Positions 53,386 to 58,873 of a stretch of 64,000 nt of DNA are shown here, one piece after another. A program made the translations under genes and the position numbers. Below the pieces are notes generated by a model. That model was not told where the DNA came from. It was given only the letters and a program-made list of their open reading frames with translations, and searched no databases. Positions within the stretch are counted from its first letter, which is position 1. Each line of letters starts with the position of its first letter. The stretch comes from Kondoa subrosea (taxonomy: Eukaryota). The stretch is from NCBI GenBank assembly GCA_039545335.1, contig BCIN01000002.1, forward strand, positions 2,696,678-2,760,677, written 5' to 3'.

Positions 53386-56300
53386 TTACAGTCGAACCAC
53401 TCCCGCAATTGCTGTTAACAGCAAGGAGTCTACATAATCCGGCAGATGCTTGTCGAATTCGACAAAGAAGTCCATGCCCTGTCACAAGTAAGCATTCTGA
53501 CCAGAGAGAAAAAAAATTATCAAACAACTGACTGGTCGGGTTCCAGGAATATATGATCGCCTCTTTGCTACATTCAAGATTTAGTCTACTCTTTGGCGTG
53601 TTTTGATATGTCAACAAACGGACCTGGATACATCCCAAGCTCGTCTAGCCCACTGAAATCGATCTTGAGCGTAGCCAAATCTTCATCTTCTGCGCTAGAA
53701 TCTCCTCTTTGTCCTTTCTTCCGTTGTGATTCCCTTAGATGAGCTTGCAGCTGATCCTCCGTCAATTGCAAAGTCATCTTGAGAGTCCATCGATCAGTAC
53801 CATAGCCAGAAGCTTCCTATACGGACATCAGCAAACAAGAACTTCAGACCGACAGAGACTCTTACTTTGACATGATGCCTGATGATGCCTCTTTCAGGTG
53901 GTTGTGGCAGATCCTGAGTACGATTTAAGGACGGGCAGGAGTGCAAAGGCATTGTAGCTTACCCATGATATCACATCAGCATCGAAAGCTATGACTGTCC
54001 ATATTATACCAGGATGACTGATGGCGATTTCTAAGTCTCTTGTCTTTCGAGGTACATTGACGGTTGAATGCAATATCGTGATTGCAAATTTATCGATCCA
54101 AGCTGATTGATAGTCTGAAGGTGGTTCAAGAGGGACTTTGTAAGCCGTCAAGAATTGAGAAACAGGGAATAGGATATCGTAATCGGGTATATCATCTGTA
54201 ATTCGACTTGCAAAACGAGATTGAGTAGATGTAGACTTCGGTCTTTGAAGATTGCTCACTCGAGCTGCAATTCGGTCGAATCGATTCCCATAGCACCAGT
54301 TGACGATTTGATCAAGTCATACAGATCGGTCGTCCTATCCATACTGGCAACATGCAGCTGCGCAGATAGTCAGTTTCACAAAGAATGCCCAAAAGTGCGT
54401 AACATACTTGTAGTGTTGGCGGTGTCGTCGAGATATTTTCGACACTTATAGCCGGATTAACGCTGGTCTGATGTGTATAAAGGCCGACCTACTGCAGACT
54501 TAAGAGGCGTTTTGGATGATTGCTATCGAAAGTGGCGAAAGAGGGCGAAGCGAAAATAGCCATTGACATGACTGATAGAAGGATTGATACACCTATCCAT
54601 CTTTCTAGCTTTTTGAGCCCGAATCGATGAGCGAGCGGCATAAGACTTGGAGTCGCTAAGAAAGTCAGCACAGCAACAAGAGAACCCATAATATGATCAA
54701 CAGGTGCGTCGGCTCCTAGTCTGCCACAAAGAGGTACGATGATATCGGTGAAAGAAAGTACTCCTTCTGTTCCGACAATGCAGGACATGACTTGAGCCAT
54801 AAAATAGGTGAACAAGTGAATTGATCGATCCGTTGATGAAGAGCCACGAGGTAATAGATAATCGTTGATAACGAAGCAGAGGATGAGCCATCCACCAGCT
54901 AAGGCGAAGAGATATGCGGAGCCTATGCCGAAGTATTGCAGTATTGTAGCTATGAATGACCAGTAGATAGTGATGGAAAGGAAGTTTCGATGTTCTATTG
55001 AGCTAGGAGTGATTGGTTCCAAGCTTGAAGGTGCATTGAGGTGTACTAGCCATTGTGCGCTTAGAATGCCAACTATTGCAGGAGGACTGTACAGAAGCAG
55101 CGAGAACAGCTCACTGCATGCCTTTATCAGCCAACATCAAGCATAACAATGTTTGACTTACTGCCTGAACCAACTTAGCGGCTTCAACCTATCCATAACT
55201 AAAGCCACCATATTTGCAAATATTATTGCACCAATCAAACTTCCCGGTACAGACAACAAAGAGAACCATTGTAATCGGATTTGGTCGCCTCTCATTCTAT
55301 TGACGAAAAGAGCAAGCATGACTAGACTCATGGCTCGATAGGCAGCGAGAGCTCTATCAGCTGAGTACATGAAGAAAAACTTGGAGCCAATAAATGTGAA
55401 GAACACAGGAGTCGCCTTTGTTTGATCTGTTTTAGTCGTCAAGATTGTTCCAGGCAGCGTTAGATGTCGCAAGATAGCAATAAGATTTTCTCCCATATTC
55501 GTGAGCGTTCCTGGTGAGAGGTTCTCAGCAATATCTTTCCTGTTTCGCCGGGTATTATGGCAATGAAGACAACAAGGGGTTAGTAACGAGCCTTGTATGA
55601 TAGAAGTAGCTGTTTGAGATGATTGCCATATCCAAGCCAGTCAGATTACCATATTGTACGAATTGCCTGCGCTACGGAGATTAGCTTGGAATGTATAGAA
55701 AGATAAAAGCAGCGTACCGGAAATCTGTATCGCTGACTATCAAGCCAGTTGCAAATACTTCCGTTGCTAGAATAGATCCATATGGATGCGGTACGTGGGA
55801 GTATGCTTCAATCATTTGCTGATTAGTTGCTTGAAATAGGATTTCTCTTCCTGTAGTACCAGCCCTATAGAGCACACAATTAAGCTTGCTTACTGCATTT
55901 TGAGGTATGCTCACGCTATAAGCAATAGATTAGCTGGGCTGAAGATAAAAGCAAAGCGATTTGACTGTTCTAGTTACCTTCTAGATTGACAACGGAACGA
56001 ATTGTGTCTTTTAAGGGATGTTGTGTGATAAACAGATGAGAGCAGTCTTGGAACGACTCTTCTGCGCCATTGAAGAGGAAGACGACTGAATTGTGAAGTC
56101 GTTGAGGTGTATTGACCAGTACTCTGATTGCTTCCAATGAAGTAACAACACCAGCCAGATCATCTGCTGCACCAGGAGATGGAAGAGTAGAGTCAATATG
56201 TGAATTTACGAGTATAGCATTGGCTTTAGAAGCTTCATCTTTTGCTGAGATGCGCACGATAATATTTGTCAGATTATAGTATTTCTTCCATACCATCTTG

Positions 56301-56764
56301 CCAATGAAGTCGAACAAATGAGCAGAACTTCCAGTCTGCTTAAAAATTTCTATCTCGTGCATTGAACCCAATTGCGATGCTTCGAGGTCTTTCTTCATGT
56401 CTTGCAACAAATCCAGCAGGTAATCTTGAGAGTCCACTAATTCCTTCGTGCCAACAATTCGGTACCCAAAGTGTTCAGCATCCGACATTCTCTTGATGAC
56501 ATTGATTGCTCTGCGTTCATTGAATTGAGGTAGACCAGTCTGGATGTCTATGTCATGACTCGTAGGAGTAGGCAGAGCTCTATGTAGCTGTGCAGCGACA
56601 TATGCTATTGTGCCAATGAAAGCAAGCAGAGATAGAAGAGTTGGTAAGATTCGTTTATGTCTTTTGGACTGCAAGACCACGCTTGTCTTATGCTGTGCGC
56701 TAGATATCCTAGATCCTTTGGTATCCAAGTCAGCTTTACGCTGAGGGGTATCCCGTTCGTCCAT
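53386..56764 (-). CDS. M28 family ER/vacuolar membrane metallopeptidase (ERMP1/PFF1-like)
   Basis: VNSHIDS, SPGAADD, FNGAEE, NLEAAG, SDTDFR, YHT, followed by multiple TM helices and HPKR. Confidence 0.92.
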
Positions 56765-57120
56765 GTCACGGTGCAAGAAAGACCTAAGATCGTCATTCAA
56801 CGTTGCAATTCCGACAACTTCTTTACTCGCAATAGTCAGGCTTCAGGCTGCAGCTGCCATAATATACCTTCCCTATGCTGCATGCATGGGAAAGCTCGCG
56901 TAGCTGAACACAATCCGTCTTTGTACCGTCTCAGTATTGCTTCAAAGCCTGATCACAAATCACCAGGATCTAAGACATTGCCAAGTCAGCTTCAGCCTTG
57001 CGACCGATGACTGTACTGCCACTTACATCCCTGAAATCACACTCATTGTTGACGCAAGCCGAAGTGACCATCATTGAAGCTTTGGTTATCTTTGCTCGAC
57101 CAACAGCTCGGAAAGCCACA

Positions 57121-58873
57121 TCAGGCAAAACGACTCTTGACCAGCAATCTATCGAGCAAGAATCCCGAGGGGCTAAGCGTAGACAAGACACGAGTTATTG
57201 TTTGACTTACGATCAGTACGTAAAGTAATGCTTTCTAAAGGGTGAACTTCTTCTTCCGATAAACGTTGCATGATAATAGAAAAGAGCGATTCATCGACCA
57301 ACGTTTGAGGTAAATCAAATGATTTGAGTTGCTTGAATTTCTATTACACAAACACGCAAAATCAAGTTTAAGAACAGCAATTTACGAGAAAGGACTTACC
57401 CATAGTAGACCAGAGAACAAAGGTAGAGCTGGTGCTTTGTTAGGCTGCTTCTTGCGATCAACAAGTAAAGTAAGGTGTTCCAGTTCCCGAGGTAGAACAC
57501 GAAGAAGATTCATTAGCCAATCATCTAGTAAATCTGGTGCGTTGTTGATGTATTGTACAATTTCAAAACTGTTTGCACCCGTCAGTCTTCCTTCAACAAA
57601 GTAGACGAGCAAAGTGTAAGTACCTCTTTAGACCAGGGCACTCCGCCAATAGCTTCGGGATAGCTTCATATTGAGCTTCGTCCACGCTCGAGATATACAA
57701 AGATCCTAAACTAAGTCGTTGCAGAGGACGGAACAGATTTGGGAAGAGCGAATCGAGTTTCCTCCGTTTAGCAAAGATTTGGGTCATGGCATGTAATAAT
57801 CCGCTATCAGGTGTGACTCTATCGGAAGCAAGAAAGATAAGCGAAATACATTTGCTGATAGGCTTCACTCACAGCGATATTTCGGTCAGGTTGAAAAGAC
57901 GGGGTAGAATTGATTCAGCGAAATAAGGCACTTCATCTATTAAATAGTCAGAGCGTTGTCTGCAGACTGCGCTCGAGGGACTGACCCAAATCAAAGCCTT
58001 GTCTTCAGCATACGCCAGACAATCAATACATGAGCAAGGTTGGTAATGACCGCTCGCTCACAAATGGTCTAAGCGCCTAAGTTTCGGCCATAGAGCAGCA
58101 AGATCTGGTAGTCGATCTTCTTTAGTAATATTATCTTCGACCGAATTCTCATGCATAAGCAATCGTCCAGCTTCGTAACCCATTTTTATCCCCGTCAAAG
58201 CAGTAGCAACGAGTCCTCTGCAGTATCATGAGGATTGACAATGACGTGGTATACACCTGTTTGACGCACAACGTTCGCAAGCTCATCCATAGCTCGCTTG
58301 CTGGTCCAGAGTAGAAGCTCAGATCCAAAGCTTTCAAATGCGCGCCAAGCTTGCAATGCGTATATCCTTGATACGCTGTCACTTTAGAAGTTCGTGTAGC
58401 CATGACGGTGTACAATGTAAGAGCGGGAGTCGTAAGAATAGGAACTAAAGATCCGAAGTGCCTCAGAGTGAGAGTATGAAAGAGTCTGCATGTTTGAAGA
58501 AGAGCGAAGCATGTGTCCAATCGTTGCTCGTGAGCTTTGCGGATGCCAGAGGGAGGAGAGCTCCAATCCTGATGTGATGTGATGGCTGTTTTACACCAAA
58601 GCTAGGCAACTAGAAGAAGCACTTCTCACCTCGTCATCTGCGTTGAATGAACTTGAGATCAGCAGGGACTTTCGACGAGGCTTAGCAGCTCTGCATACAG
58701 TCGAAGCTCGCGAGCTCCTCAAGCCTGTCATCCGCATCTTCATCGTATGTGCAGCACCAATAAAGCACCTCGTCTATCAATTCTTCGGGCAGATTGATGA
58801 AAGAATGCGAAGCTGGCAGCGCTGCATTGGAGCTAGTATTCATTGCTACCGCTTGCTCAAAGTGCAGGGGCAT
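57121..58873 (-). CDS. F-box / LRR-like protein
   Basis: FINLPEELIDEVLYWC, 8-nt micro-exon at 58630-58637, ALLQTCRLFH, then LRR-like LKALDL, CPGLK and LEHLTL. Confidence 0.65.

Follow-up and report, generated by a model that had tools for sequence, protein, structure and literature searches.

Exons of a single nucleotide (nt) are rare, have already been published for Arabidopsis, Coprinopsis and Fusarium, and a further one is a modest surprise for the specialist. In Fusarium, the P450 gene CYP621A carries a one-base exon in at least 20 orthologues, confirmed by SRA reads (Nelson and Syed, 2026, PMC12940212). The one-base exon of Arabidopsis APC11 was proven by complementary DNA (cDNA) sequencing together with base substitution and deletion in reporter constructs (Guo and Liu, 2015, PMC4674806), and a long-read annotation of the basidiomycete Coprinopsis cinerea contains 13 such exons (PMC12230235). 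Here, we describe a candidate from Kondoa subrosea, in a stretch of 64,000 nt (hereafter the window; contig BCIN01000002.1 of assembly GCA_039545335.1, positions 2,696,678 to 2,760,677) numbered from its first letter. More specifically, we propose, with a probability of about 0.84, that the C at position 55915, on the minus strand of a gene for an M28 peptidase, forms a genuine exon of one base that all functional transcripts contain. A general literature search for one-base exons, in which the following terms were not searched specifically, found among the titles listed none on an M28/ERMP1 gene or a Pucciniomycotina species. The initial annotation of the locus had placed the reported cases in plants; this holds for APC11, and the two fungal reports show that plants are not the only hosts.

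The Fusarium exon and the window candidate both consist of a base flanked by AG and GT inside an apparent intron of about twice the usual length, in a fungal gene. In both, the base is the middle one of a codon in a strongly conserved motif, is revealed by misfitting exon phases and is missed by gene models. The Fusarium exon is a conserved G (AG-G-GT), whereas the window candidate is a C that was found in no orthologous locus; also unlike CYP621A, the upstream intron of the window gene can be traced to an old, conserved intron position. APC11 offers a constitutive, frame-required base that annotation evaded with an alternative in-frame model, as a model with an 85-nt intron would do here, but it is a plant gene with long and unequal flanking introns (the gap measures 422 nt, and the exon comes 333 nt into it). 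Coprinopsis cinerea is, like the window species, a basidiomycete with short introns, and omitting ultra-short exons there leads to a premature stop. While the Fusarium exon is read-confirmed and the Coprinopsis set is a genome-wide catalogue from full-length transcripts, the window case is a prediction from genomic DNA.

Two further systems involve stepwise excision. Stwintrons consist of an outer intron, one of whose splice signals is interrupted by an internal intron nested within it, and they retain no base between the two (PMC9024468). The window junction resembles this arrangement in its two predicted spliceosomal excisions, probably consecutive, within one small region, and the initial annotation had called it reminiscent of stwintrons. 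The definition itself does not apply, as the window introns adjoin side by side without overlap, each with its own intact signals; identity with a stwintron was rejected on the absence of nesting and of a split signal and on the retained base. Recursive splicing at zero-nucleotide AG/GT sites keeps no base and concerns very long introns (PMC13149111). A donor directly after an acceptor, implying stepwise removal, is common to both, but the window junction keeps one base and its introns are about 50-60 nt long. A zero-nucleotide recursive site was likewise rejected, since the C lies between AG and GT and is needed in the product.

The peptidase gene and its proposed interrupted alanine codon

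Four homologues mapped onto the window with tblastn outline a single minus-strand gene (approximately 56764-53386) that is colinear along its entire length. The gene model, whose introns were placed by homology, runs from an ATG at 56764-56762 to a TAA at 53388-53386 and comprises 12 exons with a coding sequence of 2730 nt (909 amino acids). The assignment to M28 made in the initial annotation is confirmed by the 263-residue translation of exon 1, which matches PF04389 (Peptidase_M28) with 78.5 bits against a cut-off of 21.3; the match spans residues 168-263 and is cut off by the exon end. In an alignment of 21 sequences, H190, D202, E236, E237 and E263 show no variation; all are present in the model, as is the H of Y.YH, found in at least 90% of the aligned sequences. 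We take these conserved His, Asp, Glu-Glu, Glu and His positions to be the metal and catalytic residues of M28, the Glu of the NLE block presumably being a metal ligand. The homologues also contain PF22249, a long membrane-spanning C-terminal part; the window exon 55165-55535 alone has no Pfam match, and the full-length tblastn alignment to the Mixia and Puccinia proteins extends over its region.

A search with the exon 1 protein found 250 proteins at E <= 0.001 among 2544 candidates. Among the matches listed (the best 120 of 250), the best named ones are 'endoplasmic reticulum metallopeptidases' of ERMP1/Pff1 type from Pucciniomycotina, headed by Mixia osmundae (59%) and followed by Sporobolomyces, Rhodotorula, Microbotryum and Puccinia, and then by other basidiomycetes and Mucoromycota. 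No identical protein is present among these 120 or among the 29 proteins of a second, 'near'-length exon 1 search, and the 49-residue exon after the junction gave five matches, none from a close relative. The predicted gene is an intact ERMP1/Pff1-like M28 peptidase gene of approximately 909 codons, from a basidiomycete that probably belongs to Pucciniomycotina.

Within this gene, the exon phases around the junction are incompatible: exon 1 ends in phase 1 and the following exon requires phase 2. Between them lies AG-C-GTGAGC (55917-55909, minus strand), a single base bounded by an acceptor AG and a donor GT (Table 1). The minus-strand letters and coordinates match exactly the layout given in the initial annotation, that is a 62-nt intron, a C and a 50-nt intron.

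Table 1. Features of the junction and of the surrounding peptidase gene (window coordinates).
Feature	Position	Strand	Description
Exon 1	55978..56764	minus	787 nt; ends AAT CTA GAA G, the last G being base 1 of the Ala codon
Intron 1	55916..55977	minus	62 nt, GTAACT...TATAG, phase 1
Candidate branch site, intron 1	55928..55934	minus	GCTAATC, branch A 55930, 14 nt before the 3' end
Predicted one-base exon C	55915	minus	middle base of the Ala codon G-C-G following the Glu of NLE
Intron 2	55865..55914	minus	50 nt, GTGAGC...CTATAG, phase 2
Candidate branch site, intron 2	55878..55884	minus	CTTAATT, branch A 55880, 15 nt before the 3' end
Exon after the junction	55718..55864	minus	147 nt; starts G GCT GGT ACT; encodes (A)AGTTGREILFQATNQQMIEAYSHV...DTDF
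M28 (ERMP1/Pff1-like) peptidase gene	53386..56764	minus	homologue tblastn and translated model without internal stop
Intron 3	55667..55717	minus	51 nt, GTACGC...GCGCAG
Intron 4	55540..55591	minus	52 nt, apparently GC-AG (GCTCGT...AAACAG)

Any failure at this junction, whether the C is skipped or either intron is kept, leads to an early stop. Reading through from exon 1 ends after GGT AAC TAG, and retention of intron 2 gives GCG TGA. If the 113 nt are taken out as a single intron, the frame is lost, as had been claimed, and a stop follows at residue 279. We enumerated the in-frame, stop-free splice models in 56000-55850 using GT or GC donors and AG acceptors, which yielded six single-intron and 46 two-intron models. 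Removal of 55977-55916 and 55914-55865 around the C is the only enumerated model in which NLE is directly followed by A-AGTTG without insertion, which supports the proposed restoration of NLEAAGTTG by the C.

Among single-intron models, only one with GT and AG ends keeps both NLE and AGTTG in frame and free of stops. It removes 85 nt (55977-55893, acceptor ATGCAG) and codes through the next 30 nt to give NLE-VSKLNCVLYR-AGTTG, which adds nine residues and places a Val where Ala is conserved. A gene finder would probably choose this model. To compare it with the family, the best 120 of the 250 matching proteins were cut to their first 450 residues and aligned with the products of both splice models. 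The block N[LIV][ED][AS][AC]G is present without gap or insertion in 116 of the 120 homologues, and the residue following E/D is Ala in 113 of these and Ser in three. None of the 116 has an insertion at the site where the 85-nt model places one, nor does either of the two closest relatives found, P0139 (74.7% identical over 277 residues) and P0146 (71.3% over 265 residues). Both are translations of open reading frames (ORFs; Logan/ENA) from the second exon 1 search; they read SV[IV]NLEAVGTAGRELLFQATNEQMI uninterrupted, and their alignments to the one-base-exon model are gapless at the junction.

The four exceptions are of different kinds. P0007 and P0014 have long N-terminal extensions that place the region beyond the 450-residue cut, and P0116 is a misaligned fusion protein. 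P0082, from Obba rivulosa, has about 25 divergent residues just before AGTTG; this stretch (TYCDICFRASDRSRTFLP) lies at the conserved phase-1 intron position, where the Obba gene model is probably mis-spliced.

The splice signals also bear on the 85-nt intron. Its only YTRAY is GCTAATC, and the first AG after this motif is that of TATAG, 14 nt away. The ATGCAG acceptor lies 37 nt from GCTAATC and has no other YTRAY 6-40 nt upstream, so TATAG would have to be skipped. Moreover, the stretch that the model inserts into the protein itself resembles the end of an intron, with a YTRAY 15 nt before a YAG. We therefore regard a single 85-nt intron as improbable and retain the C as the predicted exon.

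Intron signals, chance expectation and accuracy of the sequence

The ten confidently placed introns of the gene measure 62, 50, 51, 52, 48, 48, 50, 53, 49 and 49 nt. Introns 1 and 2 are within or just above the range of the other eight (48-53 nt), while a single intron of 113 nt would be about twice as long as these or as the orthologous introns described below (46-63 nt). Each of introns 1 and 2 contains exactly one YTRAY, with no AG between the motif and the acceptor. In five of the eight other introns, YTRAY lies 11-14 nt before the AG; GCTAATC recurs identically in intron 3, likewise 14 nt before the 3' end, and GTGAGC is the donor of both intron 2 and intron 8.

Intron sizes were also sought in the window at large. 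A relaxed scan, which accepted any GT donor provided that the flanks were open for at least 50 codons, returned 37 'unique' candidates, mostly chance GT..AG pairs without donor consensus, and was dropped. A strict scan (GTRNGY donor, YTRAY, first AG) returned 35 candidates; their median length is 60 nt, and 21 of them are at most 70 nt and nine at least 100 nt long. This set is noisy and biased by the imposed donor, and at least one of its long candidates (53962-53817) consists, by homology, of two introns and an exon. As the strict set requires a G at +5, the GTAACT donor of intron 1 falls outside its scope. Because these scans are unreliable, the size comparison rests on the homology-placed introns of the gene itself.

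We next consider how often such an arrangement would arise by chance. The pattern of a YTRAY 3-40 nt upstream followed by AG-N-GTRNGY occurs seven times on both strands of the window, where 100 first-order Markov simulations give a mean of 6.08; if a flanking donor and acceptor are required as well, it occurs three times against 1.98 expected. The two other full matches (59883 and 4770, minus strand) have no coding context. The AG-N-GT pattern is therefore not enriched in the window and is meaningless alone. What is improbable is its position at this exact place: for one pre-specified 113-nt stretch the expectation is approximately 0.005, and it falls to about a quarter of this, approximately 0.001, when the base is also required to be C so as to encode Ala.

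The frame problem could also be an artefact, with a base missing at an exon edge and a single 113-nt intron, or the mark of a recently frameshifted pseudogene; an indel error would produce just such a one-base problem. To assess the letters themselves, we compared the window with Logan contigs of two DNA runs (word depths 144.2 and 53.5), each of which spans 55400-56400 in one piece. Both separately re-assembled runs are identical to the window over the 1001 bases, with no differing letter and no gap. An assembly indel at the junction is thus unlikely, and the indel that, according to the initial annotation, would restore the frame with a single intron is absent from both runs, which may, as a caveat, be the assembly's own reads. 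Nothing else in the 909-codon gene is damaged, every invariant residue being present together with 10 other clean introns, and the explanation requires, besides an intron of unusual length, a chance AG-C-GTGAGC with its own branch motif. Taken together, we judge an artefact or a lesion to be very unlikely, and a one-base exon to be the better account of the junction.

Orthologous loci and the history of the two introns

Metagenome contigs were scanned with the 21-sequence alignment. Of 245 matching stretches, 174 encode relatives, and the best 80 of the 174 were kept. No intron is present at the junction in 43 of these loci, and exactly one, in the form G/GT (or GC)...AG/CN GCN GGN and thus at the position and phase of intron 1, in 29. 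Eight are uninformative (seven without the downstream exon in the DNA and one with a spurious motif). The 29 single-intron loci represent 21 distinct intron sequences of 46-63 nt, 19 with GT donors and two with GC donors (GCAAGT in L024 and GCATGG in L037). Two introns or an internal one-base exon are found in none of the 80.

A comparison of 32 of the 80 loci with named proteins shows how the intron is distributed. All 16 intron-bearing loci examined have an Agaricomycotina-type protein as best match, 15 of these being from Collybia, Psilocybe, Amanita, Rhizopogon, Trametes, Laccaria, Bondarzewia and Suillus. The intron is absent in loci nearest to Puccinia, Sporobolomyces, Rhodotorula or Ustilaginomycotina-type proteins. 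We infer that the position of intron 1 is old and widely shared among basidiomycetes and that intron 2 is the odd one out: as single introns occur at the site of intron 1 and no locus has two, intron 2 appears to be an addition that lies one base downstream of an older intron.

Several observations weigh against a one-base exon. The conservation of AG-N-GT among orthologues that the initial annotation had proposed to look for was not found, none of the 72 informative loci having two introns, and P0139 and P0146 have an uninterrupted reading frame at the junction. Ala after NLE is not absolutely required, as Gly replaces it in three metagenome loci (L009, L011 and L062). An in-frame alternative exists in the 85-nt intron and its nine added residues. 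The GTAACT donor of intron 1, the weakest of the signals, lacks the +5 G of the clearest introns in the window. Both DNA runs come from one sample, possibly the source of the window, and are not independent of the assembly, and the spliced junction itself is a prediction from the genomic sequence.

The three Gly-containing loci (of the 80) are relevant to one more explanation, that of a single non-canonical intron of 112 nt, either 55976-55865 (TA...AG) or 55977-55866 (GT...TA), giving GAA GGG GCT and NLEGAG. Such an intron restores the frame, and the gene seems to have one non-GT donor elsewhere (intron 4, GC-AG). Neither boundary pair, though, is GT-AG, GC-AG or AT-AC, the length is again about twice that of the other introns of the gene, and such an intron would contain, for no apparent reason, a perfect AG-C-GTGAGC and a second branch motif. 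With Ala at this site in 113 of the 116 homologues and in both closest relatives, we hold a non-canonical intron to be highly improbable and return to two separate introns around the C.

In the mechanism that we propose, the pre-mRNA would contain two separate and complete spliceosomal introns that split one Ala codon twice (G/C/G), intron 1 being the old basidiomycete intron and intron 2 having been added, or recruited, one base downstream. Removal of both at the predicted sites, which is our reading of their signals, would join GAA-G, C and G-GCT to encode NLE-A-AG. Short fungal introns are recognised across the intron, which imposes no minimum length on an exon. Exon bases next to a junction must be held by the spliceosome, and it is on this basis that stepwise removal, one intron after the other, is expected: positions -3 to +6 around the 5' splice site of intron 2, which pair with U1, overlap the AG of intron 1, and the exon bases beside each junction that are held during catalysis belong to the splice site of the other intron. 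Simultaneous assembly of spliceosomes on both introns is accordingly implausible. Either order of removal leads to the same product and the same local context (A-G-C before GTGAGC, C-G after TATAG), because exon 1 ends in AAG and intron 1 in TAG, and a G is the first base of both intron 2 and the following exon. The sequence holds no hint of which intron leaves first.

As to the origin of intron 2, the Fusarium authors propose a route in which an exon base is lost and rescued by a cryptic AG-N-GT within a long intron (PMC12940212). Such a route needs an ancestral intron of about 113 nt, twice the length of any orthologue seen, and gain of intron 2 is favoured for this reason. When introns 1 and 2 were compared with the window by blastn-short, singly and jointly, nothing emerged beyond matches of 8-14 nt; with no further copies in the window, nothing there points to an introner family. 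Intron 2 was also considered as a copy of intron 1, and rejected as such since their local alignment is not significant (z < 2.5). The last 28 nt of introns 1 and 2 are the most similar of the 45 intron pairs in the gene (score 9; the second-ranked pair scores 7), which hints weakly at partial duplication.

Separately, introns 1 and 3 share the 12-mer TGCTTTTATCTT (55942-55953 and 55700-55711, minus strand; z 5.0, a score reached by none of 300 shuffles) as well as AGCTAATCT (55928-55936 and 55678-55686, minus strand), the branch motif being equally far from the AG. These two introns may be of common descent.

The closest relatives may show the opposite process. The ORFs of P0139 and P0146 run uninterrupted across the positions of introns 1 to 4 and end where intron 5 begins, and P0122, an N-terminal fragment, breaks off where the window has no intron. 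P0146 and P0122 are both reported from a 6193-nt contig, suggesting one shared contig, which, if both lie on it, is probably genomic. The joint absence of four neighbouring introns in these relatives would fit a single cDNA-mediated loss.

We tentatively hypothesize, as a possibility that falls somewhat short of even odds, that the one-base exon records a stage of intron gain. A spliceosomal intron of 50 nt, either inserted or formed by partial duplication of the 3' end of intron 1, would have come to lie exactly one base downstream of an ancient basidiomycete intron, and the lineage would now depend on strictly ordered and mutually exclusive splicing of the two abutting introns.

The remaining gene model and significance of the locus

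Elsewhere in the gene, two places of the model deserve mention. Intron 4 can be placed only as GC-AG, with a poor donor (AAG/GCTCGT), because the gapless YHTRKD alignment allows no GT-AG choice. Counted from the 5' end, its sole YTRAY (ACTAAC) comes at 11 nt, which leaves 40 nt to the AG; the true branch site may be CATAAT, some 16 nt upstream of the AG. The 3' end of the gene is ambiguous (53479-53623, minus strand), with either one 137-nt intron (53615-53479, GTTGAC...GACAG) or a 35-nt exon flanked by introns of 56 and 54 nt; the segment SGQNAYL(stop)QGMDFF in this part aligns without gap to the Mixia protein, yet holds an in-frame TGA. Directly upstream, on the same strand, lies an intron-bearing gene (approximately 57000-57500, minus strand) with a 59-nt intron (57341-57399, GTAAGT...AATAG); only a few hundred bases separate the end of this gene from the start codon of the peptidase. 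The G+C content is about 45% throughout the window.

For annotation, the consequence is that standard gene finders would disrupt the 909-codon gene, or might else place nine foreign residues beside a conserved active-site Glu or call the gene a pseudogene. As a candidate from a third fungal lineage, the locus lends itself to clean tests of one-base exons, and its main added value is the tie of such an exon to an ancient intron position. With intron 1 at an old shared position, intron 2 absent from the orthologues examined and four introns jointly missing in the nearest relatives, intron gain and intron loss are both open to study here in one small region. If intron 2 was indeed gained as hypothesized above, the junction would provide a natural test of how closely introns can be spaced and of whether existing introns attract new ones.

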